Positions 15,714 through 44,659 of a stretch of DNA of 64,000 nucleotides are shown in pieces; the stretch's first letter is position 1; every line of letters starts with the position of its first letter. The notes under the pieces are model-generated. The model worked only from the letters and a program-made list of their open reading frames with translations. It made no database searches and had not been told where the DNA came from. Source of the DNA: Amphiscolops sp. MND2022. Lineage: Eukaryota. Made by a program: the position numbers and the translations under genes. The stretch covers positions 49,912,001-49,976,000 of the forward strand of contig OZ076409.1 in the NCBI GenBank assembly GCA_964187785.1, in the 5' to 3' direction.

Positions 15714-16242
15714 TGTTGCGGATCGAGATTCCCAAAATGGTACTTTAATTGTTAGACTCAAAACTTTGATTGAAATAAACTGTGACTAGGAACAAACTTA
15801 CACGTCTATTTGTTGCGCAAACATTGAATGAAAATGAATACTAGAAAACTAAAATAGGCAAAAATGATTTCACGCATTTTCGCTAAGACGTTTACGCCAC
15901 GCTGAAATAGAAACATTCTCCACCTCAAAACTAAATTAAAATGCAAATTCTCAAACTAAGACGTATCAGCAACGGAGCCTCCTAACTCCAGATCCCCCAG
16001 GGTTGAAAATAGTGTCTTAGAAAGTTTGCGAGCTTCTTTGAGAGCGAAAATAACTTCTGAGATTAAAACCCTCCTAATAGAATCTCAGAAGATGATGAAA
16101 CTGCCGAAACACAAAATAGGTGAAAGTGCAAGAGAAAAGGACGAAAACGACCTGGAAAATGAAACTCGTAGTTTTTAGACTCCTACAAAAGCAGTAAGAA
16201 TAAACTCTACGCATAATAACGACCCGAGTACAAGTCGTAACA
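15714..16242 (+). repeat. 3' LTR of element B
   Basis: TGTTGCG...CGTAACA imperfect inverted ends, upstream PPT, AATAAA ~15774, gag-N-like degenerate frame running to the CA end as in LTR A. Confidence 0.6.
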
Positions 16243-16547
16243 CAAAGGTTTACTATTTTCACTGTTATCATTTTTTTCGAATTTTTTGCTGTTTTTGAGA
16301 TGTTCGACTTTGAGACTGCCTTAGATACTGCTTCTTTCTATCAATTCTTTGCTACTATGCAGTTTGTGATACATTTTTACCGGTACACAGTACTTGTAAT
16401 TAACTCAGAGAATATTCAATGTTTTCGCATATTGTTATTTTCCGCTGACATAAATGGGGAGGAAAATCATGATCTGTGTTGCGTTTTTTTTACAAATTCT
16501 GCCAAATCTCCACTTTTATTTACTCCATTTAGTAAAATGATAAACTA

Positions 16548-16620
16548 GTCACCGTGGCACAGTGGGTAGTGCGTCTCCCTTCCAGGTAAGAGGTCATGGG
16601 TTCGAACCCGGGCGGGAGCG
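16548..16620 (+). pseudogene. tRNA-like sequence / tRNA-derived SINE head
   Basis: A box TGGCACAGTGG and B box GGTTCGAACCC at tRNA spacing; acceptor stem pairs poorly. Confidence 0.6.
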
Positions 16621-19269
16621 TTACATTTTTTGTAGCGGAAAATGTCCCGGTGCTTAGCGGGCGCCTTGTTGCTGTTGAAATGTTGGTTGTAATTAATAAG
16701 CAAAGCAGTAAAACAGGGATATATTTCCGGTTTGTCAGCCTGAAGTAAAATCTACTTCCTGTTCGGGAGGAAACAAAAGGACGCCGGAATGAAATGATAT
16801 GATCATGTTTGATGACTAATACCAGATCAGAATTTTGGTGTCCCAAAATTTGACAGTATGTTGACGCAAATTAAGGATCGTGATGATTTTTTCACCGAAA
16901 TAACAGGAAATGGCTAATGGCTCATAAGTATTCAGTGTTTTCGTTTGTAATCAAATGATGCTAGGAGGGTATAAATACGGCGTAGCCCGGAGGTTAAGGG
17001 ACTCAGACTTTTGCTTTGATACAATACAGATGTTCTGAAATTTCTCGTTAACCATGCCTCAGCTCAGTTCAAACGTTCAATCAAGAATCGATTTTTTATA
17101 CTTCTCTTTTTCCCGGCCAACTTGCTCTTTTTGCTTGAATTTTCGCCATATCAAGGAACCTTAAACATGATAAATACCTTAAAATCAAACTAAAGGAGCT
17201 TTTACTATGTGAACTAGTTTTTTAATTCTGAAACTTATTTCCAATATACCTTTTTTTTTACTTTGAAGTCAGTGAGAAACACAATGTCGCTATAACGAAA
17301 CAATCCGAAACGTGATCTTGTATGGCGAAATACAATCGACACGATTCACGATTAAAAAACAGACGTGCTCATGTGTTGTAAGTTGTTTTTCAACTCATCT
17401 TCGCAAAGGTGGAGTGGAATAACATTAACTTTCATTTTAACTTTAACTTGTTTTTAGTCTTGTACACTGCCTTTAATAATTTAACGATAGCGTTTTATTT
17501 GAAAAGGAAATTCAGTGTTTTTTTCTACCTGCAGTATGCGTTCTAGACCAGTAACAAAACCAATAGAGATTACTAGAAAATCTAAAAAAATGAGTCGCAA
17601 ATTTTTTCTTTTTCGGTTGACACAATTACAGGATATATGATATTGGGTGGAGATTCCCATGGAAGCTATAAAGTTTTTACTTACAAATCTGTCGTTTTGT
17701 TTGTAAATGAGAACAATCGAATGTTTCTCCACTTTGATGCTTCTTCAAAACGTAAAACTTGGGTACATCCTCTGATTTGTCTTCTACAAGCTCGCATTGT
17801 TTCATGTTGATTGCCACTCTGGCAAAAGTAACATGCCACAAAGTGTACAAAACGCAGTTTCTCGACAGTCTCTGAAATCAAACCAAGGAAATTTCAGCTG
17901 TAACCATGCATAGCAGAACGTAAAAAGTGAATTTTTTGAATTGAACGAGCAAGGATGCTTGAAAGGAAAGGAATGAAGGGACAAGTCGAGAAAGAGGAGA
18001 AAATAATTGCGTGTTTTTCTGAGTTTTGAACGAACAATCGATACCCAACCCAAGTTCCCAGAAATCCAAAGAAGGACCTCCGAGAGTCGCTTCCATTTGA
18101 AAATATCAAGGAACCTAAACAAGTGATAAATTTTTTGAAAAAAAACATTCTGCCGGAAAACGTAATAAAAACCCAGAACTGTTATAATTGAAAATATGAT
18201 GTCCGACTTTCATATTTCAAATCGTTTTACCATTTATGTGTTTTATCAAAAATGTTATGTTGTATTTATTTTTTTGAGATGGAAAAATCGGCGTTAGTTT
18301 TGGTTGGTTACCACCTTCGAAGCAGCTAATACTTATCAGTTTTGTAGTTTATATTTGTAGTCGCGGACTCACGGTCCAAGCGTTTAAATGGGGAGAACTG
18401 TGCGAGGCAATACTGAGTTATCTCCGTCAGGGAATATGTGAGAGTAGGTGCCATCGCATGCGGGAACCTGCGACACCGTTATTAAATTTTCGAAATCCTA
18501 CACTGTAGTGGACTCTGCATCGTGATCCTACAAGCGTTTCCAATCATTCAATCACGCAATTTCATTTTATGAGTATTTAAAAGTTACCCAGTGTAAAAAC
18601 TCTTGAAACTCTTGCCAAGATCTTGCATATTCTTACATAATCCCGTTTACCCTTGAAAGTCTTGATAAGATCTTGTTTATTCTTGCTTCACACAAACCTC
18701 TTAAAATTCTTGATAGGACTCTTGGTAAGAGTCTTATCAAGAGTGTCAAGAGAATAAATAAAAAAAAGTTGTAAAACAAACAGTAATTTTGTTTACAAAT
18801 ATCTCGCTGTTGTTCGCACTACCAGCTACACAATCATTCTATGAAGTATTGGATATAGGACAACACAAAGCTTTGAATTTCAGAACGTGATAGCTTGGTT
18901 GGTAGCGCGGAAGGTGCCTATTCATACAGCAGAAAATGAAAATTTGGTCCCATACAGCCGATTTCAAATTACTAGCTTTTAGTGCTGTTACAGCCAATAT
19001 GTTGGATTTTGAAATATTTGAAAAGGTTTGCATATTTGTTGTATGTCTCGGTCGTTTCGCTCCCTTCGCCAAGTAGCAACATTCAGGCATGGCCATATGG
19101 CACGTCGCTCCGCTTCGCTTCGCTCCTGCATTCGGGGCACTAGGGGTATGTGAACATAGCTGACTACATTATTACACTTGCGATAAGCAAGTGTTATGGG
19201 AACGTGCGAATTTTTTTTCCGGGTGACAACTCTCTCATTTCAGACCGCAAGTCGCATAATTCAGACTTT

Positions 19270-19490
19270 TTTGGTCTAGTGGTAAGATGCTTGCTTTTCA
19301 ACCCAGAGGGCCTGGGTTCGAACCCGTGCCTATGCACTATTTTTTTTACAAGCTGTGCTGCTTCCAATACTTGCAATTGTTTTGAAACACTTGCTTTTCA
19401 ACCCAGAGGGTCTGGGTTCGAACCCGTGCCTATGCACTAATTTTTTTACAAGCTGTGCTTCTTCCAATACTTGCAATTGTTTTGAAACAC
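19270..19490 (+). repeat. tRNA-derived SINE-like head with ~100 bp tandem partial duplication
   Basis: TGGTCTAGTGG A box; GGTTCGAACCC B box present twice. Confidence 0.6.
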
Positions 19491-19733
19491 ATTTTGTAAA
19501 TGATCAAGTTGAGTTCATGCATTCATGTAACATGTAATGATGTACCTAGCAAGGTTTTATTTTTGAGTGTATGAGGTTTACCTGAAAAACGTTCCGGCAA
19601 ATATTGGTACAAATCAGCCATAATAAAAAGGTTTGTTAGGCTGAAGATTGCAGCAGTTGATGTCGACGACGAAATACAAAATTTCAAGAGTTGAGACATG
19701 GCGTACCAAGACTGTCGAGTCCGAGATTTTAGC

Positions 19734-20543
19734 AAGTTGCATGTAGAAGGGGTGCGAAACTAGCGAGTCCTTCCCGGGCAGGTCGTTCCGGGCCACCCAA
19801 GGTTAAACACATGTAACAAAATATGAAACTGAGTTCACCGAATTAAAAATTTTTTTAGTATAATTATGGTTCATTTTGTTTTTCGTATTTTCACAATGTG
19901 TTTTGGCGGACGTTTTATGTTACATCAAATTATGGATGTTTTCCTATTGCGGAATCATTTGATCCCTAAGATGTCATTTTTTTTGGTCCTCAACTGAGCA
20001 GAGGTTGCTGGCCTTTTTTTCGGTAATTTAGCTTTTCATATAAAGACTGAGGAAACTTTTCAGGTTGTTTCAACATTTTTTTCGAACTCAGTTGATCCAT
20101 TTTTTAATGAAACATTATTCTACCCAAAAATGCCAAATTTAAGTTGCATGTAGAAGGGGTGCGAAACTAGCGAGTCTTTCCCGGGCACGTCGTTCCGGGC
20201 CACCCAAGGTTAAACACATGTAACAAAGTATGAAACTGAGTTCATCGAATTAAAATTTTTTTTAGTATAAATATGGTTCACTTGTTTTTCGTATTTCCAC
20301 AATGTGTTTTGGCGGACATTTTATGTTACATCAGTTTATGGATGTTTTCCTATTGGGAAATGATTTGATCCCTAAGATGTCATTTTTTGGTCCTCAACTG
20401 AGCACATGTTGCTCGCCTTTTTTCGGTAATTCAGCTTTTCATATTAAGACTGAGGAAACTTTTCAGGTTGTTTCAACATTTTTTTCGAACTCAGTTGATC
20501 CATTTTTTAATGAAACATCATTCTATCCAAAAATGCCAAATTT
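19734..20543. repeat. ~407 bp tandem duplication; third partial copy at ~21272-21470
   Basis: Units start AAGTTGCATGTAGAAGGGG at 19734 and 20141. Confidence 0.85.
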
Positions 20544-21695
20544 GAAGCGATCGTCCCAATTTTTAACGGACGCCATTCGTGCTTGAATTCACTCAATACG
20601 ATCTCGAACAGTATCTCTCGATGTTGCTCAGAAGAAAAATTTGTTAAACCTAAAATCTGAGACCGCAAACCGGGTTCGACCTTGCCCTGATCCAGTTTTT
20701 CTTGATTGTCGAACCTGTGTATGGGAAAACCCTGTCCTAGTGGTTAACCTATGCCCAAATTTTTTCCAACCCCTATGCTTTGCCCGTGTGATTTTTCTTC
20801 CGTAGATTCGATGTTAGCAACTCTACTAAATTGAGACTTCGGACGAAAAGTTCGTTGCCTATTCAATCGAACCTTTCAGTGATGTTTCAACCAATTCACT
20901 CTTCCAAAATAATTTCGAGGAAAGTCTTTCCTTTGCCAACTGATATTCATCGAGTTGTTAACATTAAACGCTAATAGTGTAGTGCTACATGTGTTGTATA
21001 TTTTTCTGCGATAATTTTTTCATCAATCATCAACTCCTTTGGCTTCATCATGAACTATTGTCACTCCCGCCTCGTGTTTTAGTTACTTCTTTTCAACCAG
21101 GTCATTTTTAGCGACCTGAAAATGCCAATTATTCACGAAATAGAATTGCCAAGCCTCACGAAAGCTGAAGTTTTTTCTGAGAATGAACGTTTTCCAATTC
21201 GTTTGCTAGGAAATTTTTCATTAGTTTTTTGCGTTTGTTTTGTGGGGATCTCTTGAGTTTTGCACAGGTTACTGGCCTTTTTTCGGTAATTCAGCTTTTC
21301 ATATTAAGACTGAGGAAACTTTTCAGGTTGTTTCAACATTTTTTTCGAACTCAGTTGATCCATTTTTTAAAGAAACATCATTCTATCCAAAAATGCCAAA
21401 TTTGAAGCGATCGTCCCAATTTTTAACGCACGCCATTTGTGCTTGAATTCACTCAAACCGATCTCGAACAGCATTTCCCGGTTTCAGCGTTTGTTTGTTG
21501 TCACTAAGCTATATCGTTCAGCAATAGAAACATGTATGTCTCCTCAGGTAATTTTGCTGGGTTAAATTAGGTATGCTGATAGGCTGCAGTTATCTACCGT
21601 TTTTTGGAATGTTCCCGAGCTTTTTGTAAGCTTCGTAATGCATGATCCGACTCACTCGAATGTTCAATTCAATCATCTCATCTTTTTCAGACAAA

Positions 21696-22416
21696 ATGAA
21701 AACATCTTCTACCTTGCAACCCATGTCTGATGACCAGAGGTTTCTGAGCATCAAAATGCAGTCCAATATTATGTCGTCCTATCGTAACAAGAATGAGGCG
21801 AAGGAGTTTTTCATCCAGCAGATTCAGTCTATGGGATTTACTGGATTTAAAGTTCAGGTCACAAACTACCGATTCCTCATTCTTCACGTCAATTGCGACA
21901 ACTCTGAGGTTTTTGTTTTTTAGTGTTAAAAATATGTTCAAAGATGAAAAGTAAAATTTTTAATGCTGTACGTTACATCGATTCTCCATTTGCGGAGTAC
22001 GTTTTTTCTGCTTTGATCCTGATTCAGCATCTGCATTTCACGCCACATTTGATGCCTCTAGTGTAAAAATATTTTGTTCTTTGAAGTCTAATCTACTTTT
22101 TTAACAGACTGCATCGGCCCTCTTCAGAGCTTTGAAGTTGAAGAATTTCATCCACAGTCAAAAAATTGTTCTTACACCGGCGAATTTGCAACTCCGGAAC
22201 CCCATCTTTCGAGACGGTATCCAAAGAAAACACAACGCCTATCGCGATAGAAGTGACAGACTACATGCAAGCAATGTATACAGCGCACAGGAAGCGAAGA
22301 AAAAGAAATCCGAGAAAGCGGCTTTCCAACAGAATGCTACAACTCGTTGCCTGCCGCTAAAAATTCGACAGTCCTTGAAAAAAAAAGCTGATAAGCATCC
22401 GTCCGAGAGGGAGTGA
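21696..22416 (+). CDS. Two-exon orphan ORF upstream of the RPA-like gene (possibly RRM-like with a basic tail)
   Basis: Donor ~21909 and acceptor ~22107 join ..NCDNSE to TASALFRALKLK.. in frame. Confidence 0.35.
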
Positions 22417-23063
22417 ATGTTTCAAGGTTCTCTTTCCTTAGACTTCTGGATATTTTGATTGATTTGACTTTTGATTTTGTTATTTTAAGATTGATTTTGC
22501 ACTTTTAGTTCGTTCAGTCATGGTTTTTTCTGCTTGGCACAAAGATTTTACTTTGTTTTCGGAGTTTCCAGAATCTTCTGAGAATTTTTGACATTGATTT
22601 TATTTTTCATTTGAAGTTTTATTTATTGTTTTTAGTTTCTTAGGTTATGTTTTTTCTGGCAAACCGTTTTTATTCGAGTGAATTCACCTGTACTCCGATC
22701 CTGTTTTCTCCAGAAAGGTGCTCATGAGTTCAATATTCGTCTCTGTCGAAGTATTAATTTTAAATTCTGGCGTTTTTTCTGGTGCTTCTGCATCTACAGG
22801 TTTGAGAATATTTGTAACTAAATTTAGTAATTTTTTGAATCATAGTGACTACGAACGAGCGAGCTACGATTGGTTGCATTGGTTGATGGAAGTCTTAGTT
22901 ATTCTTTATATTTCAAAAAATGCGCGTGTTATTTGTCCTGTATCCAAGTTTTCTCAATGTTTTGAATGACCTACTTTTTAACTTTTCTTTGAAATACCTC
23001 AAACTGTGACGAAAAAATGAGTAATATCTTCTTTAACTCTGCTTTTATGAAATTGCTTTTTAG

Positions 23064-24255
23064 ATGCGCATGGCTTCTCCGTACAAAAAACTCAACACTG
23101 AGGTTCTGTTCCATGATGGCTTTGTTAGCAAAACAGCCAACGGCCACCTTTTCCGTTTCTGCTTTTCAACCGCTGACAGGTGTGTCGATGGATCTTGTTT
23201 CGACAAAGGACAGCATAACCTTTATAAGAAATTTGCTGATGAGAAGACTTTTGTTACTCTGCAATCACGTGTTGGTTTGGACGAGGAAAAGCGGATCGTA
23301 AGCCTAACCTCACTGAGCAACAAACCACCTGTTGTGTGTGATAAAGAAGCACCGGATACAATCATCTGTCAGAATTATCCACTGAAAACGTTGGTTTTTG
23401 TGTCCGACGAGAGCCTCAAATGTATAATTACAATTGTGGCAAAAATTGTCCAGAAACGTGAAAGCGACTTTTCCTACTCCTTAAAGAAGTCCTTGGATGT
23501 ATATGAGCTAACAGATGATACGAGCACGGGCGTAATGAAAATCTGGGAACCACGCTTTGATCTACTCGTTGGTGCCATTTACGAAATTCGTGGCACTGTT
23601 AAGGCATTCAAAAACGAAGTCTATCTCGAGGTTGTTTTCATATTTTACACTTGGAATGAGGTTTGAACTTCAAATAAGTTTGTTACTTTTATTCTCTTCA
23701 GGTGGCTCAGTACCCCTCCAACCTGATTATGCTTGAGGATGCGCCCGCGTGCTCAGGCGGAGTCACCAACCAACCGGATTTGACATTCGCTTTGAAAAAT
23801 AAAGCTGTGGCGAGTGTTTAAGTTAGTAATTCCGGCTGGGTTTGATTTTTTTACATAATGCCTGAGTGGTTTTCTTTCTTCAGGTAACCAAAACATTCAA
23901 AACTCAGCTTTGCCTGGTGTGTAGCAAAAACTTCACGCCCTTAGCTGAATCTGCCATTAACAAGAAGTACGTTTCTGTGGAATGCCGTCATTGCCACGCC
24001 AAAGTGAAGGTTCTAAGAAAGGAAGTCCGAATTTTGCGGACAACTTTGGTTGTAGACGATCACGTTCTAGAAGTTGATCTGTCTCTACTTGCGGAATTAT
24101 CAACAGAGAAGGAAGTGAAAGACTTTTTCCTTACACACAAATTTGACTTCAAAGTTCGAGGGAAAAACATTCTGTCGTTGCAGCAAAAAGGACTTGAAAG
24201 CGACTCAGACGCTAGCAAATCTTCCTCGTCCCGTGTCGGCAGTGTCAGTTACTGA
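23064..24255 (+). CDS. RPA70-like OB-fold ssDNA-binding protein with zinc ribbon, spliced
   Basis: OB-like LTDDTSTG..KIWE..GAIYEIRG.VKAF, C-terminal CLVC...CRHC; acceptors at ~23701 and ~23883. Confidence 0.6.
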
Positions 24256-24875
24256 CTCACGAGTTTTCTCAAAATGAATGAAACTAGACAATGATTTACA
24301 AAACTATGCTCTTCACTTACTCGTTTGGTATCGAGCTATTTACTTTGTGTTGTTAGTAATTACTTAATCACTTCTGATACCTTGAATGATTTTTGCTAGT
24401 TTTTTGAATTGTTTGTTCACATCGTTTTGCTCCCTGGCATCATTTCGATGTGAAACAAGTACATGTTCATATTTCTGCCCTTTAGCTTTATGATAAAAAC
24501 ATTCCAGCTGTTTTTAAACGTTTGTCAGCTTTTTAAATGATCTTGATGTTAATTAGCTGGTTAGTGTTTTTCCATTTCTTTCCAGTTTGTCTGTCGAGTC
24601 ATGCAGAATAGATTCTGAAAGAACATTTTTTGATTCTGCTGAGTTTCATAACCGTTTTTCGGTAATGCTGCATAACTTGCTTCGAGTTTTTGTTCTTGTG
24701 CGTTCACATGCTATTCCGAAGGCTGTTATCTACTGGCTCCTTTATAAGTATTACCAAGTCAAACTTCTCAATGTTGCCATTTCTATCAGAGGAATGTTTC
24801 CAACATGTTACTTGAATGCAATTGCAAAAATAAGTCAATGTTTTTTCAGAAGTGAAAGATGTTTGGTAATCAAAG

Positions 24876-26849
24876 ATGGTTTCAACTAATACCTCGAAAC
24901 AACTGCAATTCAGAGGATTGACCAACGTGGACAATATTTGCTACTTGAATTCAATTTTGCAGTCGCTGTTTGCTTCAAAAGTTTTCCGAGAATATTTATT
25001 GGGTTTTACAAACCGTGGCTCTGCTCATTCATGCTTGAGGCGAATTTTCCAAACATACACGAGCTGCCGAGGTCCTGTTTGCGAATTGAGAGATTTGAAA
25101 ATAAAGCTACTGAATCTTTTGAACCAGCTCTCTGATGCCACCGTTTTTCATGTGGGCGCTCAACAAGATGCACACGAAGTCTTGACGTCCTTGTTGCATT
25201 GTTTGGAGCACGAAGCTTCTCCGAATGACATTTGGCCCTTCAAGCTCAAACTGATACGAACTTTCCGATGTATGGTTTGCCTTCGACAATGGCAGAAAAC
25301 TGACACTTCAAATTGTTACAATATTGAAGTCCCCAAAAACGGCTCTCATATCGAAGATGTTCTAACTGCCTCCTTCGCAGCAGAAACAATTGACGTGAAA
25401 TGCCATGAAACATCAGCATGTTCCGGTACGAAGGCTGTTGTTACCAGCGAATCATTTCCAAATGCTCTCTTATTTTTAAATCTGAAACGTTATCGTCATA
25501 CTGCTGGAGGTCGTCAGTATTTGAAAGTTTCAATTACAACAGCATTGTCTTTGACGTTCCACAATCGTTATAGTTGGAGAGCAGCCATTGTACATTCAGG
25601 ATCTTTCGATTTCGGTCATTATCATGCAGTTGTGACCGATGATGTCAGTTGTTTTTACCTTAGCGACACAGATATTCGGCAGTCGTCTGTCAGCGAAAGT
25701 AATTTAGCTTACATGCTTTTTTATGAGAAATTTTCTGATGATTCTGTTCATGATCAACTTAGTACCACCGCGACTAATCCTTCGTATCCACCGCTGTTTT
25801 CATCTTCCAAAAAAGCTTCATCAATTGCAGCTAAAGAATTTCCGACGTCTATAACCAGTTCAAAACCATCTACTGAAACTCCAACCACCGAATTCCAAGT
25901 TAAAGGGTTGACGAATACAAATAACATTTGCTATTTGAACTCGATTTTACAATGTCTTTTTGCTTCGAATCTGTTTCGAAGTTACATTTCGAAGTTTACT
26001 AGTTCTGGTGAGACGCATTTATGTTTACGTCAGATTTTTGAGGCCTATGTACACTGCCAGGAGCGCATATGCCAAGTGGGACAATTGAAAATCAATCTCT
26101 TGGGACTTCTTAACAAGAAGTCAAACAACGTTTTTCATTTGGGTGATCACCAAGATGCACATGAAGTGCTGACATTGTTCTTGCATTGTTTGGAGCAAGA
26201 AGTTTCGTCAGATGACCTCTGGCCCTTCAGTCTAAAAGTGGTAAGGTCTTTCCGATGTACCATTTGTCATCGCCAATGGCACCAAACAGAAACCTCAAAT
26301 TGTTACGATGTAGAAGTTCCCAAAAGAGCATCCCACATAAAAAAAAGTTTGGATGCGTCTTTTGGTGCAGAAACCATTGAAGTGGATTGTCACGGGAGAA
26401 CATGTTCCGGAAAGAAGGCTGTTGTCACAGTCGATTTATATCCGAATTCGCTGTTGTTTTTGAATTTGAAACGTTACCGACACACGGCTACCAGTCGTCA
26501 GTATTTGAAAGTTCACATTACACCTGCCTCGTCTTTGAATTTTAACACTCGGTATACTTTACGGGCAGCAATAATACATTCAGGGTCGTTCGACTTCGGT
26601 CATTATCATACAATTCTGGTTGACGGTGTCAGTCTGCAACGTGTGAGTGACACAGATATCAGTGTAACGACAGCCGATGAACTGAAACTAAGCTATATAT
26701 TTTTGTATGAATCAGACGTTTCATCTACAGTGAATGATATCAATTGTCTAAGCTCCTCGCTGACATCAGAAAAATGTCAAACCGTCTCGTCTGTGTCCAC
26801 ACAACTACCAGTACAAACAAAAAAAGAAAACTACCTTCTCATCCTTTGA
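24876..26849 (+). CDS. Tandem ubiquitin-specific protease (peptidase C19/USP) domains
   Basis: Two Cys boxes GLTNxxNICYLNSILQ, two QDAHE motifs, two His boxes HSGSFDFGHY followed by SD. Confidence 0.9.
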   Translation: MVSTNTSKQLQFRGLTNVDNICYLNSILQSLFASKVFREYLLGFTNRGSAHSCLRRIFQTYTSCRGPVCELRDLKIKLLNLLNQLSDATVFHVGAQQDAHEVLTSLLHCLEHEASPNDIWPFKLKLIRTFRCMVCLRQWQKTDTSNCYNIEVPKNGSHIEDVLTASFAAETIDVKCHETSACSGTKAVVTSESFPNALLFLNLKRYRHTAGGRQYLKVSITTALSLTFHNRYSWRAAIVHSGSFDFGHYHAVVTDDVSCFYLSDTDIRQSSVSESNLAYMLFYEKFSDDSVHDQLSTTATNPSYPPLFSSSKKASSIAAKEFPTSITSSKPSTETPTTEFQVKGLTNTNNICYLNSILQCLFASNLFRSYISKFTSSGETHLCLRQIFEAYVHCQERICQVGQLKINLLGLLNKKSNNVFHLGDHQDAHEVLTLFLHCLEQEVSSDDLWPFSLKVVRSFRCTICHRQWHQTETSNCYDVEVPKRASHIKKSLDASFGAETIEVDCHGRTCSGKKAVVTVDLYPNSLLFLNLKRYRHTATSRQYLKVHITPASSLNFNTRYTLRAAIIHSGSFDFGHYHTILVDGVSLQRVSDTDISVTTADELKLSYIFLYESDVSSTVNDINCLSSSLTSEKCQTVSSVSTQLPVQTKKENYLLIL

Positions 26850-29800
26850 CTTCGCTGCTAAAATTTTCAAGACAAGTATTGAAGAAACTCCTACTAAAAA
26901 AATCAGGACCGAAAGCACCCTTAGAAATGAAAAACAATCGACACCTCAAAGCACTCGTGCTAATTCTGACTTGAACCTGCAATCAGAGAATACTCATTTT
27001 TCTCTTACTTCGATTTCACCACAGTTTTCGAAAAGAAATCAACAACAGCGTAACTTTCGACAGAATGTTATAAAAAATCTCAGCAATAGATTGCTTAAGA
27101 GAAAAGCTGATCGTATCAACTATCAAGAACATCCTCAAAAGAAGATTCTAATTCAAAAAAAGTCTGACGCTACTAAACTACTCTTGATGGCAAACTCAAA
27201 TTACAAATTGATGAATAATGATCGCGCACGGCTAAGAATGAGAAAACCTGAAGTTTTGGAAATAAATCGGGCGCGAGCTTCCAGGAGATACGATCTGAAT
27301 GTCAGAAAACACAAGCCCAAGAAACAAAAAGAACAGATGACACTACAGAAGTTGGTCAGAAAGTGGAATCATCACATTAATTTCAATTGCTTGCAGTATG
27401 TTTGCGTATCTTGCAATCAAGAATTTTATCAGAATCAAATCAGCAAATTGAATAACGCTCTTATTGATCGCGCTCGTCTTATAAGAGTGTCTCTTAAAGA
27501 GTCCACCTCTGTACAAAACAAACGATGGATTTGTTTAACTTGCTCGAAACACTTACTTAGGAATAAGGTACCTCCAATGTCCATTAGTAACGGTTTTTCT
27601 TATCCTGAGCAACCTGAAATATTTCGGCGATCGACGAGGATTAGCCGTTTGATGGTTTCGCCGAGAATTGGCTTCATGAAATTGGTATCAAAACCCAAGG
27701 GTGGTCAACGGGGTCGTATAGGTGGAGTTGTGAACGTGCCCAGCCTCGTTGAAGAACTTCATAAAACTCTGCCTCGTTGCAATAATGACAAACATCTTTT
27801 TGCAGTGCAGTTGTTCCGTGATTCGTTTCAATCCAAACCATATATACAACAAATGTCTATAAAGGCTGATGCTTTTGAGATGGCGAAGTTTCTTTGCCAA
27901 AAACCTCTTTTCATTGAAAATGGTATTTCTTTCCAACAGTCTGATGTTACTTGCTGTCAAAACACCGTACACGCTGACCCAATTGCAGTTGAAACAGACT
28001 CAGATTCATCGACAGATACCCAAAGCCTGATTGACCGAGACCTGAATTTACCAACTGTAGTGACCTGCGAAACTCCCTGGAGCTCAAATTCTCTAATTCG
28101 CGTTTATCCCACTTCTGGTCAACAACCTTTATCTATTTTCACTGACCAGAACTCCGAAGAGTTGACATACCCCGAACTTTTTTGTGGCGAAGCAAGGGTC
28201 GATAATAGTCGCCGCAGAATTCCAGTAAGTTACTCAACAATTGCGCAAGCTGAATTGAAGTCAAGTGACCGACGCTGGGCACGACATGAAGAAAATCTAT
28301 TCTGGAAAGCTACCAAGTTGAAAATTTCTTCTCTTTTTGAGAAGTTGAATGTCGTGACGAGGAAGCGCTACAATAACCTAACAGCCAAGGATTTGTCTGA
28401 AGATTCTATCAAGTCACTCTTCGCCTCCGACCGTGCTTATGCTTTCACAAGTGCGTTCCGAAATTCCCCCGAGTTTTTTAGGAATTTGCAAAACGAATTT
28501 TTTGCAATGGTCAGAACCCTTGGACCACCGCAGTTTTTTATCACGTTTTCAATGAGTGAATCCCGATGGCCTGATCTTTTACGTTTGCTATATCAATCCA
28601 AATACCCTCAGAAACCGACTCCTCAGGACCATGAACTTCTAACGCTTCCATGGCTTGAAGTTTGCTCTCTGATTCAAACAGATCCTGTCAGAATTGTACG
28701 TCATTTTGTGCGCAAACTGCGTTCCATTCAGAATCAGGTTTTGAAAAGTAATCTGAGCCCGATTGGAAAAGTCGTTGATTTCAAGTCTCGAGAGGAAGAC
28801 CAAAAACGTGGTACTTTGCATGACCATGGAATCTATTACGTTGAAAATGCTCCAGTTTATGGTGAATCCACTGATGCTTCCATTGTCACTTTTATTGATA
28901 AAGCTGTTAGTTGTTCTCTATTTTTACCCGACATCGTGGACTGCAACTTAACGGAAGCAGACGAAAGATTGCCATTGGTTCAAATACATAAACATCAAGC
29001 AAACTGCAAAAGACCTTTCGTCTGCCGCACAGGTTTCCCCCAACCGCCTCTTCCCAAGACAATGATTCTACGTCCTCTTGAAAATGATATTACGTCGTCG
29101 GAACACGCGTCAATTTTCGCTCTCCACAAAATTGTTTACACGTTTTTGAATGATCCTACGAAAGTGCCTCCTGGTGAGGATTGTACTTTCGGTTTCAATG
29201 AAATGCTTACCAGGATGAATGTTTCATACACAGATTATCTCAAAGCTGTACGATATCCGTTGAAACGCCCAGCTGTTTTTCTACGAAGGGAGCCAAATGC
29301 CACCAGGGTCAATGCTTACAACCCCTTTTGCTGTACCTTTGGCGATCGAATATGGATATTCAATATATTCTCGATGCATATGCGGTTGCGAAATATATCT
29401 GCTCCTATATTGCAAAGGCTCAGAAAAATATTTCCAGAACTCTCAAAATGGCGTCGGATCAAGCTAAAAACGGGTTGCTCGAGTATTCTGACCAGTTGAA
29501 AGAGATCGCTCGAACATTCATTGAGCATGAAGAAATCGGTGCACAGATGGCTGCTTTGCTGGTACTACAATTGCCGATAACGGTGTCCACGAGATCGACT
29601 CTCTTCGTTAATACTTCCCCTCCGGAACAAAGAGTGAGAATGCTGAAAAGTCACCAGGAACTGGCTCAGCTTCATCCTGACTCAACCGAAGTTTATGCGA
29701 ACAACTTGTTCCATTATTATACATCCTGCCCGCGGACTCTGGAGAACTTATGTTTAGCAGATTTTGCCGCTGAATTGGTTCGTCGCTCTCATAATGAAAC

Positions 29801-31516
29801 GTTTGAAACATCTGAAAAAGTCATAACATGGCCCAACAAGGCACAATTCTATAAATTAAAACGGAATCGAATCCTACGATACGTCAGGTTCGATGTTAGA
29901 AAAGACCCTGAAAACCATTATCGAGAGTTGTTACTTCTCTTCCATCCATTTCGTGATGAAATGAAGATCTTGGGTAATTCCGACACGTTTGAACAACAGT
30001 ACCATCTTTTAAAAGAAAAAATTGAAGCAAAACGAGTTGAGTTCGAACACTGGCGGTCTGTTACACAAAGAGCTTGTGATGAAATAGAACTTCTCAGCCC
30101 CGACGAACTGGAACGAATTAACACCTTCTTGCAAGACGAAGACGAAAACTTTCAAACGGAAGCAGTAACTCATCTGGACGATACGGAGTCTCCAATTGTC
30201 ACCATTGGTCAACTACCTGCCCTGATAACAGAAACTGACTTCGTCTCGCTAATTGCTAGTTTTAACTCCGAGCAGTCAATGATCTTTCATTCCATTTTAC
30301 ATGAGCTTATTCGGAAATCACAGACTTTAAGGGTTTTCGTTACAGGTGGTGCCGGTACTGGCAAAACAGTTCTTGTTCAAGCTCTTTACCAAGCTATATC
30401 CCGAACGAATGATCAACCCGGACGTTCACTCGACCAACCGCTCGTCCTTTTATGTTCCTACACAGGCATCGCTGCTTCCCATATTAAAGGAACTACTATT
30501 CACAGCGCTTTGGGGTTTACGAGTCGATCCAATAACCCAAACGAGCTTTTGGAAGTATCTCGCTCTCGACTTCATACCTTACAAATTCGATACCAATTTC
30601 TTCAAGTTGTGATTATAGATGAAATTTCATTTCTTGGGTCGAACTTTCTTTGCCTTGTTGATTACCGCCTGCGAGAAATTCGCGCGTCTACTTTACCCTT
30701 TGGTGGCTTGACCGTTTTGTTTTTCGGTGATTTATACCAATTACCTCCAGTCAAAGATAGGTTGATTTTCCAACAACCTTCTGATGTGATAGAGTTTCCA
30801 CGCTTCAACGTCCAACTGTGGAAACTTTTCTCAATGTTTGAGCTCAAAATAATCATGCGACAATCGGATGACTTGCCTTTCGCTGAGCTACTTTCTCGAG
30901 TTCGAACAGCTTCACATACAGTTGATGATATTCGTATCCTTGAAAGCAGAATAATTCCAGATGAGATTCATCACCCACCCCGCTTACGTATCTGTCATAC
31001 AAATCAACGAGTTGCTGAATACAATGAAAGAGTTTCGTCGGTATCAAGTTGCCAGTCACACACGATACTTGCCATTGACAACATTTCAAGGGATTGGCCC
31101 ACTGCAGAAGTTCAAAACGACGCTTTGTCACGGAAAATATCAAAGATGACTTCTCATCGAACAGGAAATCTCGAAAGCAGTTTGTGTGTCGCAACCGGTG
31201 CTCGTGTTATGCTAACTTGCAATCTTAACTTAGACGATTCACTGTGCAATGGAAAGATTGCTGTTCTCAAAAAAGTTCAATTAACGAATGGTGAACCAGT
31301 CATACTTTGGCTCCATTTCGAAAACAGTGATGTTGGCCAACTTCAACGAATAAAGCATCACCGTTTGTATCGTGACGGCATTCAATCGAATTGGGTCCCC
31401 ATTTTCAAATTATCTCAAAGCTTCGATGTAACTCATGGAACAACATCAAGTAGAGTTACCAGAATTCAGTTTCCTGTCGTTCCTGCATCTGCTATCACCA
31501 TTCATAAATCGCAAGG
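26830..31516 (+). CDS. Helitron Rep (HUH) - Pif1 helicase, one frameshift at ~29325
   Basis: FFITFS, EDQKRGTLHDHG, YICSYIAK; GGAGTGKT, IIDEIS, GDLYQLPPV, MRQ, TIHKSQG. Confidence 0.92.
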
Positions 31517-31649
31517 TGAGCTATTTTTGTTCTTTTCGGGAACGTATTTTAGCACTTGTTACTAATCGTTTCAACCTGAAGTGAAACGCTATCTTCCTTT
31601 TATATTAGATTTCACAACTCTCGGAGAATGAATCTGTTAATACTTCAGA

Positions 31650-32574
31650 CGATACCTTCAATGACTTGGAGTGTGACTTCCGTTCTCGACCAACAATTCA
31701 TCATTTGGTGTACACGGCACTGAGTAGAGTCCGAAAGTTGGAAAATTTGTTCATTGTCGATGAATTCCTCTCCAGAAAGATATCTGTTCACCCAGAAGTT
31801 AGTTCAATCGTTGTCGACCCTGCTTCGGTTTTTGAACTGCTCTACAGCCAATTGTTACTTTCCCTGAGTTGTTTGGTTATACTGAATCCTCTTGCTCAAT
31901 ATACACTTTTTTCGTTACAGGTTACGCTGGAGATGGACCGACTTAGACAAGAGGCTGTTTTTCCAACTTTACAATCTCTGTCCAAGTGTTGCAAAATCCG
32001 CCTATTGTTCCAAAATGTACAGAGTCTTCGAAAAAATTTTTGCATTGCTACCAAGCAACCATTTTTCGACATTGCAACTTTCAACATTTTCTGTGAAACT
32101 TGGTTGATGTCATCAGACACACTTCCATCCACATTCAATGATATGTTCATCACACGACTTGATTTTCCTACGTGTAATTCGAATCAGAGACACAGAGGAG
32201 GATTTGTAATTTTCTCGAAAGTTCGTCTCGACATAACATCCGAAGTCACGAACAATGTGCAAATAGCATGTTTCGAATTCATGAATCTTCTTTTCATTTT
32301 TGTTCATCGACGACCGTCAGAAACACCAATATCATTGTTCAAAGAATGTCTTTCTCAGATTAATGTAAACTTGAAATGCGACAACAGCTCCTTTTTACGC
32401 TTTATGGGGTCAGAAGGTTTCCACTGTCTAATTGATGATACCACCACGAAAGAGCACACACTTCTTGATCACGTATACTGCAATGAATCGAATCTTCTTC
32501 ATAAGTTGAACTGTTTTGTGGCCTACAATGTTTATAGTTTCCATGAGCCCATTGTTTTAGAAGTTTGTGATTGA
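31650..32574 (+). CDS. Helicase motif VI exon plus APE-type endonuclease exon
   Basis: YTALSRVR; introns ~31517-31649 and ~31798-31920; QNVQSL, CETWL, LLDHVY, SFHEPI. Confidence 0.75.
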
Positions 32575-34003
32575 TTTTGTTTCAGTAGTTTAGCTTGTTT
32601 ATCTTATCTTGAATTATATCCAGCTGAGATGAGAAATTTCGAAACAAGAAAAATGATAGCGTATAGTGTTTTTTCTCGCTTTTCGATTTTCTGAAATCCA
32701 GGCACCATATGTGCAAAGATTTTCGCGCTTAGTCAAAAGCCTACTTCACGTTGCGAGCCATGATTGCTAACATTTGAGAGAAAGCTTTAGGCCATCTTAT
32801 TGGGCCGAATGAGTTGCCGGAGTTGTTTTTAAAGAGATTCCACAGTTTGAAGTTGAAGGCCGGAGGCTCGAGAAGTGAACTCAAGGTTAAAACTCAATAA
32901 TTTCTATTTTCAATTCCAAATTACAACCCAATGATTTTCTCTTTAGAATTAGTACCCACTTTTGTAGTATGATTTATTAGTGCTAATGAATATGATTTAT
33001 TTTCAGAGGTGTAAAATGCATTTTCGTTGGTAAAATCTCAAATGTTGCCTGGCAAATAGCGATGTGACGTGTTGTGCTTTAATAAAAGCGATGTGTTTTG
33101 CGCTGTGCTGTTGCCTTCGTCAAGAATGCAGGCTTTTTTTCAGAGGAAATCGGCCACTCAAGACATTTTTTGGCTGGTTCCCCCAACAAGCATTTTCATT
33201 TCAGGACCTAATTTGTGTCTTTTTGTGCTGTTTTTAAATTGATCAGTAAGTAAAAAATTGTCTTGCCTTTTAAGCCATGGTCCTTCGTGTGATATTGCTT
33301 ATGCGGTTTTTTCAAAATTTGCAACTTCGCAAGTGTTTGCGAAGCACGGCTTCGCCTCTGTGTAATAATAATTCCGACAAAATCTGACACGCGTTTTCAG
33401 CTTAGTGAATTCAATTCGATTTCAAATTTCAGCCAATCAGATTGCAACATAAAAAAATATTCTGATGTTTGAGACCAATTTTTCATTTTCTGCTGTTTGG
33501 TACTTCGGCTGTTTGGGAATTCCCCAGCGCGGAAAGCTGCGGCATAATAGGTACGCTGATCAAGCTGCAGTTGGCGTCGGTTTTTGTTTGTTTTCATTCA
33601 CTTCTGTCAGTTTTTCTCTTGAATTTCTTGGCACGATCTTGCAAGATCTTGCAAATTCGTGGATTTCTTGGTAAGAATCTTGGCAAGACTCTTACTAAAA
33701 AATCCAGGAATATTCGAGATTCTTATCAAGAGTTGCAAGAGTTTATACACTGGGTAGTTTTTGATTAATGAAAGTAGCGTGAAAAGTTTCCAGCAAATTT
33801 AACAAGGGAACATACATAAACTTGACTTCTATAGAAATTTGAAATAGGCTTGAACCAGACTTGAAATATAATTGAAACTTAGCAACGAGAAGTACAGTCG
33901 TGGAAAAAAGTTTTCGTAATGAAAATTGAATTTGCAAATGACATCAAAAATAGTAGTTATAACTTTTATTGGGTAAATTGAATAAAATGAAATTTGAAAC
34001 ATA

Positions 34004-34125
34004 CTAATAAAAGCTGGTTCTACCACCAGCCATAATGTCAGATTCTATACGTTTCGGCAACGAGGCAATCGGCTTTTTTATAAATTGTGCATCAATTCGA
34101 GCCCATTCTTCTTTCGTCACAAATT
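34004..34125 (-). pseudogene. Tc1-like transposase C-terminal fragment
   Basis: EEWARIDAQFIKK..SLPKRI...AGGRTSFY resembles the Tc1 C-terminus. Confidence 0.5.
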
Positions 34126-34575
34126 TTTCATACAGAAGTTGTAGCGGGAATATAACACTGAATGATATTGAAACCGTGAAAAGTTTGTTCATTCACTACG
34201 AAAACTTTTTCCATGAGTGGAGTCGATAAACACAGACACCGATGAATTTTAAGGTTGGGTATTTCCCTACTAATGTGATATCTCTGATTACGACACCGAA
34301 AATGAAATTGACACTAACCAATGGTTTTATACCGTTTTTCTTATACCAGTTTTCGTAATTGATTTTGAACGAGAACAGGTGTTTTATAACGTTTACAAGC
34401 TCTCCAACTCCACTAAAGATGCTGTGGAGTTTCGATGAGCCATCTTGACCTGAGGGTTGAAGAAAAAAATTGAAATGAACTTGATTGATTCAAGCTTCAA
34501 CGAAAAAGGTTGAACTCATCCCTAATAGATTTCCATCATTAAGTGGCTGTAATGTTTGGATCAGAAGCTCAATTG

Positions 34576-34806
34576 TTATAAAAGATTTCTAACTGAGTGT
34601 GAAAAGTAGAAGCAGGAAGCATTTTGAAGACACAACAAGCAGCAGTCATTTAAGCTTTGATCAGAATGAATGGATAGTTTGTTGACATTGACCGATGAAG
34701 TTATTTCTTCAACACAAGGACATTCATCTGAGTATTTTGCCGCAAAGCTTTCCAATTCCGGGGTAGCTGAAAAAATAGCAATTTCTATTCTTTTAACAGT
34801 CATCAA
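34576..34806 (-). pseudogene. PAN/apple-like domain fragment adjoining the Polinton insertion site
   Basis: SLNDCCLLCLQNASCFYFS cysteine spacing; stop codon where the last Cys is expected. Confidence 0.4.
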
Positions 34807-34807
34807 G

Positions 34808-35663
34808 AGTAGTAAGCGAAATCCAGATTCGGGCCAACCAAAGAAAAAATTTCAAAAGCCCCAACACCCCCCCCCCTTTAGAGGCCCAATCAAGCCAAGC
34901 AAAATTCAAAAAATCAAAGTTCACAAAATCATTGAAATTAGGCCCCTTTCCAAAAATAAATCATCAAAATTAGCGGTTGACCAAGCAAAAAATTCACCAA
35001 CCACCCCCAAATTCACAAAATCATTAAAATTAGGCCGATTCTGACCAAGCAACAAAAAATTTCAAAAGCCCCAAACCCCCCCCCCCCTTTAGAGGCATTT
35101 TTCCAAAAACAAATCAACAAATTGGCGTTTTTACCAATGCAATGTAAAAGCAATGCAATATAAACAAATGGCGTGTACATAAATTTGGTTCCAATGGCTC
35201 AGTGGTTAGGCCACTGGAATTTTACGTTCGCGCAGCTTCACACGTGTTCGAGTCCGCGACAAAGCATATTTTAATTTCACCATTAGTGGAGGGGGGTATA
35301 TAAGGAAGTTAGTATATTATTTTTACTGACAAGTTACTCATTGCATGAAAGGATTTGTCATCCTTTCCTCCGCTTTCGAGCAGTATTGGCAATAGTTACG
35401 TGAGCTTTACCAGGACACACTTTCGGGAGGGGAAAAGATTGTGTGTTACATAAACTGGAGCTCCATAGTGAATTAACCAGTGGGAGGTAAAATCCTGTGT
35501 AAATAACTTGCGAGCGTTGGACGTCTGTAGCACATGGTGTCGGTCGACGGAAGCCGCGATAAGCTTTTGCGTTAAGCTTTCGCGTTAAGCTTTCCCGTTA
35601 AGCTTTTGCGTTAAGCTTTCGCGTTAAGATAAGTTGCCTAATACCTCAACGGGAAACGATTTT
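34808..35663 (+). repeat. Left TIR (with internal ~200 bp expansion)
   Basis: Reverse complement of 49438-50108. Confidence 0.92.
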
Positions 35664-35696
35664 CTCGACACCCTTTCAATTTTTTCATCCTAATAA

Positions 35697-36434
35697 ATGT
35701 ATGAAACTCCGTCTCTTCATAAGTTTGGTTTTTCTAGTGAACAGCTAAAACTGAGAGAATATCAAGAGCTAAAAGATATGATAAAAAGTCAAGAAAAATT
35801 AGCCCAAATAACCCATTCCAAATTAAAAGAAGATTTGCAACGCGATTTTGAAAATGACATACAAAATCAAGAGAAATTAATAGAAGAAAAAATGCTAGAC
35901 GCGAAGCTGCGCCAAATACTAGACCCACAGGAAGTTCAAAGTGTTTTATTAAACACAAAGTTAATCAATGATATTTAATCCCAGTTTTCAGACCTTTCAA
36001 AAATCATAAATAACTTAGAACAAATAATGAAAAAATCTTTCGCCGATTAAAGAACTGCTTCAGAAAATGAAGTACCAAATTTAATACACAACAATAGTTT
36101 TGAAATGTTAACAGTCCGTAACTTAAAGTTTATGTCAACTCCGGGTCAAGCTGGAATGATTTTAAATGAAAATGAAATAAATTTTATTCTTAATAGCCTA
36201 GATCAAAATATAATTACTTGAACTAAGAACATATTTCAACTGCTTTATGACAAAGGTTTATTCGATTCTTTTCCCAATAAAGATCAAGCTTTTGCAGATT
36301 ATCTAACTTTCAGTGATACCTATTTAATGGAAAAATATGGAAAAACAATACCTACTTCATATGGTGAATATTATCTGTCTGATTTAAAATATTCTACGAG
36401 ACCAATAATTTTGAAGTCATTGAAAAAGATTCCT
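35697..36434 (+). pseudogene. Polinton orphan coiled-coil ORF, interrupted
   Basis: ATG just inside the TIR; coding-like frame continues past stops. Confidence 0.4.
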
Positions 36435-36510
36435 ATAAAGACCTTGTTGATATGAAACACAGAATGAAATTAACACCAACGGTAATAAATTTCATTTTAT
36501 ATGATTATTA

Positions 36511-37078
36511 AATGAAACAAAAACTCTATCCCTCAATGACCCCCTCCGCACCATATGATGTAGAATCAATGATAAATAAGCAATTACAAAGGTTTTTCAA
36601 TAATTCTATTCAATAATTCTATTCAAAGAAATAAAATACAAGAAAAATTACACCAAATGCAAGCTAGTAAATAACATATTTAACTCGACAGATGGTTTTA
36701 TAATAAAAGGAACAACTTCAGCATCAATTACACTAAGTATTACTGGTGTGGGTATTATAGTTGTTCCAATCACTGCAGGAGTTGGTTGTGCAACTTGTTT
36801 TCTTGTTAAAATTTAGTCCAGTTATTTGAAGAAAAAAGAGCAAAATTATAAACTTAATTACGCTATTATTCAGAAGACACTTGCTGACTTTTGAAAAAAA
36901 ATATCACCGATTTGTGAACATGTATGAAAATTATCGCGTACCTTCACAATCACAAACTATAACAAACAAGTGTGATACAGCAACACCGACTACAACACTG
37001 ACATCGCATATGCCATCGCATAAGCCATCGCATAAGCCAAACAGTTTTTTACAATTAATTTATTCAATTTCAACATAA
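36511..37078 (+). pseudogene. Polinton small membrane protein
   Basis: Hydrophobic stretch SASITLSITGVGIIVVPITAGVG; frameshifted. Confidence 0.45.
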
Positions 37079-37224
37079 AAAGTAAAATAAAAATTAACAC
37101 ACATTAATTGAAAAATACACTATTTTTAACATAAAGAGTAAAATAAAAATTAACACTCATTTTTAAAAAAATTTACTATCGAAAAATATACTGCTATTAA
37201 ATTCGTAAATTTTTTTATAACTAA

Positions 37225-40200: not shown

Positions 40201-41066
40201 ATAAAAAGACAATCCAAGTTAAATTTTAAAGATATTGTGGATTGGTACAGTGTGTTTAGTGTGTACAAGTTTGATAAAGGAAGAACAGTCTTTGACAAAC
40301 CAATTAATTTAGGTTTTACAGTTTTAGAACTAAGTTAGTTACTAATGTATGAATTTTATCACAATACTTTAGAACCACATTGGCAAAATAAAGTACAACT
40401 TCACTACATGGATACAGATTCTTTTGTTTTAGTTTTGACAGTCAGTTGGAAAATTTTATTGAGTTTTTAAAACAAAATAAAGATGAATTTGATTTCAGTG
40501 AACTAGACAATGTTCATCAACTGTACAAACCAACCAACAAAAAAGTTATAGGAAAAATGAAATTTGAAACAAATCCAGTTTTGTTGTTAGATAACTTCAC
40601 AGCTTTACGATCGAAATCGTATTCTTTTAGTTATAATAATGTGCAAAAGGCAACGCAAAAGTCGAAACAAAAAGGAATACAAAACGCCCCTGAATGTGAA
40701 GATTACACACGGTGTTTGTTTATGTCCGAAACAACAAGTGCAACAAATTATTCAATTAGATCTAATTTACACAAACTAAGTGTGGAGAAACAAAACAAAC
40801 TAGCTTTGAATCCTTTTGATGACAAGCGTGTGTACTTAAATCCAATACAAAGTTTATCAAGGGACAAACACACCCAGAAAGGTGGTTGTCCTTGTATATA
40901 CTGTTTGAAATTAATTGGTTTGTATTATAACGAATTGAGCACAAGTGAAACGGATGGTAGGTGCTTCCGGGATGAAGAAATATACTATAACATTTGGACT
41001 ATGAAAAAAAAATTGAATCATCAAGATCGTTTAAATCTGATAAGTGATGGGGCCCATTTATTGTGA
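37225..41066 (+). pseudogene. Protein-primed family B DNA polymerase with N-terminal zinc fingers and an endonuclease VII/HNH-like insert
   Basis: YADFEC exo I, DHDHLTGKYRGAAH..CN, KLAYPYE, YIDANNL, KLMNKAFFGK, YMDTDS, LRSKSY, DDKR. Many stops and frameshifts. Confidence 0.92.
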
Positions 41067-44655: not shown

Positions 44656-44659
44656 ACAA

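Follow-up and report, generated by a model that had tools for sequence, protein, structure and literature searches.

Tandem USP deubiquitinase domains in a Helentron of Amphiscolops and their likely fusion to the transposase

Results

The locus

We analysed a 64,000-nucleotide stretch of DNA from Amphiscolops sp. MND2022 (GenBank assembly GCA_964187785.1, contig OZ076409.1, positions 49,912,001 to 49,976,000 of the forward strand), hereafter the window, in which all positions below are counted. Judging by its sequence, the plus-strand region 19168-33373 is a copy of a Helentron (HLE2) of about 14.2 kb, with ends placed from structure. It contains three long plus-strand open reading frames (ORFs): ORF1 (24870-26849), ORF2 (26764-29499) and ORF3 (29202-31565). 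ORF1 encodes two ubiquitin-specific protease (USP) domains, and ORF2 and ORF3 encode the Rep and the PIF1 helicase; an RPA-like gene lies upstream and an endonuclease (EN) exon downstream. A first-pass annotation had already named a Helentron here, and this identity is borne out by the combination of Rep-PIF1-EN, DUF6570, subterminal inverted repeats (subTIRs) with hairpin ends, and the RPA-like gene.

Two USP domains

Read from its Met at 24876 to 26849, ORF1 is intronless and encodes 657 amino acids with two matches to Pfam UCH (E 2e-44). USP domain 1 (peptidase C19; residues 13-283, 24912-25724, plus strand) carries Cys22 at 24939, His248 at 25617 and Ser263-Asp264 at 25662-25667, and the zinc-ribbon cysteines of its fingers are present. 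Linker 1 (25731-25892, plus), which is 41% Ser/Thr and has no glycine, leads to USP domain 2 (25902-26714, plus), the second UCH stretch, with Cys352 at 25929, His576 at 26601 and Ser591-Asp592 at 26646-26651. Both domains keep the oxyanion Asn and the Cys (C22, C352), the QQDAHE or HQDAHE box, GHYH (H248, H576) and the Ser-Asp pair. Ser at the third position of the His box occurs in 5 of 34 aligned rows, where it is rarer than Asn or Asp, while the Asp that follows is found in all 31 rows covering it; the passages of PMC10867860 drawn on here describe Ser-Asp at the third and fourth catalytic positions of the active USP16, USP30 and USP45. An AlphaFold2 model of domain 1 (pLDDT 92.8), the domain that was modelled, adopts the thumb-fingers-palm fold, and Foldseek matches it to USP12, USP30, USP35 and USP46 (TM-scores 0.83-0.86, 23-25% identity), all the listed matches being USPs. 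Pfam, the motif columns and the domain 1 model therefore agree with the earlier reading of two complete C19 domains with a Cys box, QDAHE and GHY..SD: by their residues both are real and catalytically complete, and enzymatic activity is very probable.

The two domains are 60% identical in amino acids and 68% in nucleotides over 275 codons, and as far as their sequences tell, domain 2 is a tandem duplicate of domain 1. Synonymous divergence between them is high (dS 1.28) and dN/dS is 0.22 (bootstrap 0.14-0.31), values that point to purifying selection on both domains long after the duplication.

With USP30, USP16 and USP45 and with USP12 and USP46 the window domains have in common the fold, the Cys and His boxes and the Ser-Asp pair (PMC10867860, in part, for Ser-Asp). 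They differ from these cellular enzymes in their low identity (23-25%), their small size (about 275 amino acids), the lack of accessory domains and their encoding by a transposon, and no orthology can be assigned. By sequence the nearest solved relatives are USP46 and USP12 (E 1e-8); identity reaches only 18-25% across the solved USPs, with many subfamilies giving similar scores, so no substrate can be assigned either. Among Atlas look-alikes of domain 1 are USP clusters of giant viruses, a likeness that reflects minimal domain size as much as kinship; gene transfer from giant viruses was accordingly not adopted as an explanation.

Joining of the USPs to the Rep

A single USP-USP-Rep-helicase-EN protein is the likely original state, because the frame upstream of the Rep is free of stops, homology begins before its first Met, the composition of the linker switches frame at an A-run, and the breaks look like homopolymer slips. 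The A-run (A7-G-A4; 26819-26830, plus) would be a first frameshift from the ORF1 into the ORF2 frame, the passage being placed by linker composition: in the ORF1 frame the Ser/Thr content falls at the run from 40% to 11%, and stops appear, while in the ORF2 frame it rises from 5% to 33%. As assembled, the junction carries one surplus base or lacks two. From the A-run to the first Met at 27187 the ORF2 frame is stop-free for 120 codons, a length matched by 6 of 20,000 base shuffles, so the Rep frame is indeed open upstream to the A-run, as first proposed, and past it. Likeness to a sister Helentron family already begins at 27118, before that Met. On these grounds we find it fairly likely that the fusion ran through a frame slip at the A-run.

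The further proposal that one base links USP-USP to Rep-helicase-EN is incomplete. A second frameshift lies in the Rep (29322-29329, plus; CCCCTTTT, one base short), where tblastn alignments of intact Helentron proteins switch frame, and two putative introns in the tail would also have to be removed. This second break, too, sits in a homopolymer, after the HUH-like motif and before the catalytic tyrosines. The balance tips modestly towards both breaks in the window copy being homopolymer slips that arose in assembly or by decay of the copy.

Several results speak against an original fusion. None of the six other USP copies described below reaches the A-run junction in frame, and the slips in those copies are all one base short, whereas the A-run junction needs +1 or -2. 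Four of the copies share a slip in the second USP; if it is real in the DNA, most copies make the first USP only. Two frameshifts, an H-D-H motif in the Rep, a probable HKSQD motif in the helicase and the missing GD of the EN (see below) mean that the window copy may be non-autonomous. Similarity between linker 1 and the frame after the run was not significant (p 0.19) and was dropped as evidence, as was an FDxAAxIF motif that the window element and the sister family have in common (in the same test p was 0.15 for the Rep frame and 0.02 for a frame interrupted by stops). Long fused relatives of ORF1 were sought by word index, and of the 5 matches among 6416 candidates none had a Helitron domain in Pfam; the first 479 codons of ORF2 had no match among 3527 candidates. 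Both searches are weak tests.

The two ORFs might instead be separate genes of the element, USP-USP ending at 26849 with its 657 amino acids and acting as a deubiquitinase in trans, and Rep-helicase-EN starting at Met 27187 or from another 5' exon. As assembled, the window does read as two ORFs; the HELIANO survey (Li et al. 2024, PMC11417382), in the parts used here, usually places UCH in an ORF apart from RepHel, which likewise weighs against the fusion; and in five sister-family proteins the USP part stops just after the His box and the next ORF has its own Met. We nevertheless regard separate genes as unlikely, given the 120 stop-free codons before the first Met (the 6 in 20,000 shuffles quoted above), the homology upstream of Met 27187, the switch of linker composition at the A-run, and the fact that only some 340 bases, coding-like in character, separate the ORF1 stop from that Met.

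Splicing could also join the two halves, its product still being a fusion, if a phase-0 donor at 26730 were used with an acceptor at 26769 (40 nucleotides) or 27024 (295 nucleotides). Both junctions are in frame, there is a pyrimidine-rich tract at 27024, and the element has other putative introns; against these stand a weak donor, a T content of 25-30% in the candidate introns versus 40-48% in four putative introns of the element and, for the long intron, a chance of 0.0056 x 0.099 that the two frames would be open versus 0.32 x 0.77 for the A-run slip. A spliced junction is thus very improbable.

Other copies of the element

A search of 1.84 billion protein representatives returned P0013 at 98% identity to ORF1, in a cluster of seven proteins, each on its own contig. 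One of them, P0162, corresponds to ORF1 from codon 18 and is taken to be the window locus; the six other USP copies, on six contigs, are 96-100% identical over their aligned parts. The first-pass annotation had allowed for an independently transcribed host gene. The USP ORF is, by sequence, cargo of the Helentron, because the element's ends flank ORF1 and near-identical USP copies occur on other contigs. Copies of the RPA-like gene lie on contigs equal in length to those of P0013, P0164 and P0165, from which it appears that the USP and RPA-like genes probably travel together in three of the six copies. Exact look-ups with ATG-started proteins from ORF2, ORF3 and EN gave no match in 15 cases, so that the Rep is not tied to the other USP-bearing contigs. 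The Helentron family is multi-copy and, on balance, we take it to be young.

Five of the six other USP proteins are frameshifted, by six frameshifts in total, each one base short at a homopolymer run of 5-8: A8 at 26339 (four copies), T5 at 26700 (one) and A6 at 25809 (one). Homopolymers one base short are the pattern of under-calling in long-read assemblies, which these frameshifts fit; a real mutation shared by the copies may instead account for them.

Relatives and origin of the USPs

Beyond the six copies and the fragments P0014 (52%), P0015 (66%) and P0016 (29%), no close USP relative was found among the 1.84 billion representatives. The sister Helentron family comprises the 13 proteins of the P0022 cluster, which share 35-38% identity with ORF2. 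In four of them (P0022, P0180, P0181, P0183) the reading frame of the DUF6570 region continues into the C-terminal half of a related USP without a Cys box. As several of the proteins lie on the same two contigs, we infer that an element with its USP upstream was rearranged in tandem. Pfam does not detect the USP of the sister family, and such cargo may therefore be under-counted.

A different arrangement is seen in P0140, an intact DUF6570-Rep-PIF1 protein of 3020 amino acids with UCH at its C-terminus. The window Rep-helicase scores 265-281 bits against EN-bearing fish proteins versus 60 bits against P0140. Among seven long Rep relatives, VTD (Pfam Herpes_teg_N) occurs in the same ORF in four, which speaks for the fusion in the window element, and EN in four. 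In a FastTree phylogeny of 165 USP domains, from which near-duplicates and two multi-repeat proteins were left out, the window USPs group with P0014, P0016 and the sister family (SH support 89), apart from the UCH of P0140. This weakly suggests that the USP was captured independently of the C-terminal UCH in other HLE2 elements, and because branches in the tree are long it does no more than suggest it.

A JGI metagenome scan gave one locus, L001, a long multi-exon USP gene of cellular type with no Helitron-like ORF by eye, and an IMG/VR scan with the helicase gave nothing. Outside Helentrons, a retrotransposon also carries USP cargo: in P0004 (1688 amino acids) UCH stands before a gypsy-type pol with reverse transcriptase (RT), RNase H and integrase. 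Nor are tandem USP arrays peculiar to the window element: the vertebrate proteins P0017, P0018, P0019 and P0087 have 2-10 UCH domains and no Helitron domain.

Putative boundaries and probable insertion site

The extent of the element, about 19168-33373, follows from a 10-bp subTIR at 19174-19183 with its inverse at 33327-33336, since this pair and the hairpins at both ends match the pattern of Helentron ends. The 5' end (19168-19194, plus) consists of a T-rich terminus, the subTIR and a nested inverted repeat at 19187-19194 that would form an 8-bp hairpin (-8.1 kcal/mol, DNA parameters). At the 3' end (33325-33373, plus) the subTIR is followed by a palindrome (33339-33355), a second inverted 10-mer (33360-33369) and a T-rich terminus; the 25-nucleotide hairpin bearing the subTIR is the strongest in 32575-33960 (-8.6 kcal/mol). 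When the flanks 16300-24875 and 32575-35000 were compared, no other subTIR pair combined a nested inverted repeat at the 5' end with a hairpin at the 3' end, and none of 500 dinucleotide shuffles gave such a pattern, which was modelled on PMC4067079 and fixed after the pair had been seen. Both putative ends are T-rich, which is as far as the sequence speaks to insertion into TT without target duplication.

The Helentron appears to have inserted into a small element with terminal inverted repeats (TIRs) that spans 18587-33754, now split into 18587-19167 and 33374-33754 (strand not assigned). This TIR element is about 960 bp long; it ends in CCCAGTG, is flanked by TA on either side and contains repeated TCTTG motifs. 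A pair of 39-nucleotide inverted arms (I15), considered as Helentron ends, was rejected because the arms belong to the flanking TIR element.

An Rfam scan of 16000-36000 found no match. The 5' part of the Helentron holds an internal duplication of about 405 bp and a third partial copy (19734-21480), a sequence that is multi-copy elsewhere. A tRNA-like B-box (GGTTCGAACCC) in a repeat resembling a short interspersed nuclear element occurs once outside the Helentron (16589-16631) and twice in tandem in its 5' end (19290-19489). A small, probably spliced gene of unassigned kind lies at 21642-22416.

RPA-like gene, Rep, helicase and endonuclease

The RPA-like gene with a predicted OB fold (23064-24255, plus) has about two putative introns (23631-23701 and about 23816-23883) and a CxxC...CxxC motif in its last exon. 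Its Pfam match, to tRNA_anti-codon, is weak (E 0.089), and its Atlas look-alikes, OB-fold and RPA clusters at 0.91-0.94, serve as a lead only. The RPA-like exon has three other copies at 94-96% identity; the window copy of this exon (23064-23663) lacks six residues present in all three, a private in-frame deletion.

Downstream of the A-run, Pfam and motif comparison with six relatives place an N-terminal basic region, a Cys-rich region, DUF6570 and the N-terminal half of the Rep at 26827-29329 (plus); in ORF2 Pfam detects DUF6570 at 27559-27903 (E 5e-9) and Helitron_like_N at 28366-28833 (E 9e-20). The HUH-like motif at 28819-28827 is a non-canonical H-D-H, where six of seven relatives have H-I-H, H-L-H or H-Y-H and the seventh is not matched by the pattern; the surrounding region, 28795-28827, reads EEDQ..RG.LHDH. 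The C-terminal half of the Rep and the PIF1 helicase occupy 29326-31515 (plus), with about 30% identity to fish Helentron proteins. There the Rep tyrosines are kept (Y at 29394 and 29406), and PIF1 is matched by Pfam at 30261-30872 (E 3e-27, ORF3). An exon for the helicase tail, with a TALSR motif (31649-31797, plus), lies between putative introns at 31516-31648 and 31798-31920, whose T content of 40-41% resembles that of the element's other introns; a helicase motif at 31491-31650 probably splices to HKSQD, which is non-canonical.

The AP-type EN exon (31921-32574, plus) has no Pfam match. Scored with a profile of four ENs from fish Helentrons, it ranks first among the 712 window ORFs (E 3e-5), and BLASTP gives an E-value of about 2e-4; it lacks some 18 residues, the GD of the GDFN motif (32330-32380) among them. 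Measured against an autonomous Helentron, the window copy has neither an intact frame nor a canonical HUH, while it keeps the tyrosines. The non-canonical Rep, helicase and EN motifs may reflect either decay or a divergent family.

Other elements in the window

Positions 35035-50108 are taken up by a degraded Polinton/Maverick-like element between long inverted repeats (I1, I3, I9), with an A32-type ATPase at 43666-44496 (E 5e-9), a double jelly-roll capsid domain at 41190-41915 (minus strand, E 1e-13), and pieces that we take to be polymerase-like and integrase-like. Broken remnants of gypsy-type long terminal repeat retrotransposons lie at 3369-9957 (minus) and 58628-60340 (plus); RT and RNase H are confirmed for 4947-6302, and the rest is labelled by eye.

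Discussion

Known deubiquitinase cargo of Helentrons

According to the portions of the HELIANO survey consulted (PMC11417382), UCH is among 20 stably captured domains, is found almost only in HLE2 and is enriched in subgroups c and d; the markers of subgroup b are EN and Herpes_teg_N, and that of HLE2 is DUF6570. The window element has Pfam UCH (PF00443) cargo and DUF6570 in common with these UCH-bearing elements, and differs in that it has EN and that its USPs are upstream and doubled, where theirs is UCH in separate ORFs. The text portions of the survey give no side for UCH and mention no tandem copies; the domain positions in its Figure 7 might include upstream UCH. The window Rep's best relatives carry EN and VTD, both subgroup b markers, which argues against subgroups c and d, in a comparison that included no c/d reference set.

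A closer parallel comes from zebrafish, where Erven et al. 2022 (PMC9741609, in part) describe the EN-bearing Helentrons DrT1, with two VTDs, and DrT2, with VTD and OTU, as encoding active deubiquitinases; the VTDs cleave K48 and K63 chains, and protection from proteasomal degradation is proposed as their role. The window element resembles DrT1 and DrT2 in being an EN-bearing Helentron with deubiquitinases that keep their catalytic residues and that, if the fusion is right, would lie in the transposase ORF, in tandem as in DrT1; its own relatives carry VTD upstream of DUF6570-Rep, the same slot that the USPs occupy here. The window USPs, in contrast, belong to C19, a fold class other than that of VTD, and are known from sequence, whereas DrT1 and DrT2 have been assayed (PMC9741609). 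In ORF1-ORF4 of the window, Pfam found no VTD (Herpes_teg_N) at E up to 1, nor OTU.

With canonical Helentrons and with HINE/DINE-1 elements, as described in the relevant parts of Thomas et al. 2014 (PMC4067079), the window element has in common a subTIR with a 5' nested inverted repeat, a 3' subTIR with a palindrome, T-rich ends, an RPA-like ORF and Rep-helicase-EN. It departs from them in its exact subTIR of 10 bp versus 11-15, one short of the 11 bp used there for family naming, in having USP in place of OTU, and in the non-canonical HUH and EN motifs of the window copy. Beyond Helentrons, OTU and Ulp1 on other transposases and C19 on a Trichomonas transposase are recorded in the portion of PMC2836005 consulted, and a paper on a Paramecium Helitron (PMC13085455) yielded no passage on ubiquitin, UCH, OTU or protease.

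Deubiquitinase cargo of Helentrons, Pfam UCH included, is thus already in print, and two USPs in front of the transposase are a new arrangement of a known theme. The first-pass annotation had named OTU proteases on some animal Helitrons and no known case of tandem USP; of the novelty it implied, UCH cargo (PMC11417382) and tandem VTD (PMC9741609) were known, while tandem or N-terminal USPs in an EN-bearing Helentron turned up nowhere in a full-text literature search that mostly left out subscription journals and did not cover Repbase or Dfam.

A role for the USPs

Taken as a whole, the observations are explained best, with modest rather than strong confidence, by a young EN-bearing family whose transposase was fused to USP-USP and whose deubiquitinase is protective. 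The original transposase would have been USP-linker-USP-linker-DUF6570-Rep-PIF1-EN, about 2,450 amino acids long, accompanied by a separate RPA-like gene, with the USPs in the N-terminal slot that VTD or OTU holds in related Helentrons. In the established Helitron model, labour is divided among Rep, PIF1, EN and RPA: here the Rep would nick and join, PIF1 would unwind, EN may open the target, and the RPA-like protein would bind the displaced strand. The tethered USPs would strip ubiquitin, most likely K48 chains, from the transposase and from its partners at the rolling-circle intermediate. Spared from proteasomal turnover, the large transposase would last long enough for nicking, unwinding and insertion.

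This anti-degradation role, for which the chances seem to us about even, is argued by analogy with the VTDs of zebrafish Helentrons, which act on K48 and K63 chains and for which that role has been proposed (PMC9741609). Of the three roles suggested by the first-pass annotation, protection from proteasomal turnover fits best and polyprotein processing worst, the linkers having no glycine.

The main alternative to protection is that, in a fused transposase, the USPs act mainly on host chromatin or repair proteins, deubiquitinating H2A, H2B or PCNA at donor or target sites so as to oppose silencing or direct repair. USP46 and USP12, the nearest solved relatives (E 1e-8), are histone deubiquitinases, and the Rep would tether the domains to DNA; a repair role for transposon OTU and Ulp1 domains has also been suggested (Bao 2010, PMC2836005, in part). 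With 18-25% identity to solved USPs, subfamilies that score alike and no assignable substrate, the likeness to USP46 and USP12 carries little of this argument, and no targeting domain is present; we hold such a role to be improbable.

USPs cleave after a di-glycine end, and neither linker stretch contains a glycine. Since viral deubiquitinases often process polyproteins (PMC9741609, in part), the domains might cut the polyprotein into its parts in the manner of viral papain-like proteases; for want of linker glycine, and with no ubiquitin-like domain found by Pfam, this deserves scant credence. Least credible of all is a passive or chance capture of a host USP of no use to the element, frequent as gene-fragment capture by Helitrons is (PMC11417382, in part): ORF1 is intronless and tandem-duplicated, with dS 1.28 and dN/dS 0.22, it is multi-copy and related to the USP of the sister Helentron family, and the 1.84 billion representatives hold no close cellular donor.

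Significance

Helentrons carry OTU, VTD and UCH, and other transposons OTU, Ulp1 and C19, with no experimental tie to transposition in the literature examined. Two compact USPs in the VTD slot of a young family strengthen the case for a selected, interchangeable activity. No new kind of system is opened by them; as soluble 275-amino-acid enzymes the domains lend themselves to assay. Their Ser-Asp active site, as in the K6-preferring USP30, may confer an unusual linkage preference, and two domains that are 60% identical may split substrates between them.

It is quite possible, and we would put it no higher than evenly poised, that an EN-bearing lineage captured a USP independently, placed it in the N-terminal slot and duplicated it, with both domains active in one protein with the transposase. 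If so, a third unrelated class of deubiquitinase would occupy the same slot, and deubiquitination would be a near-obligate accessory step of Helentron transposition.

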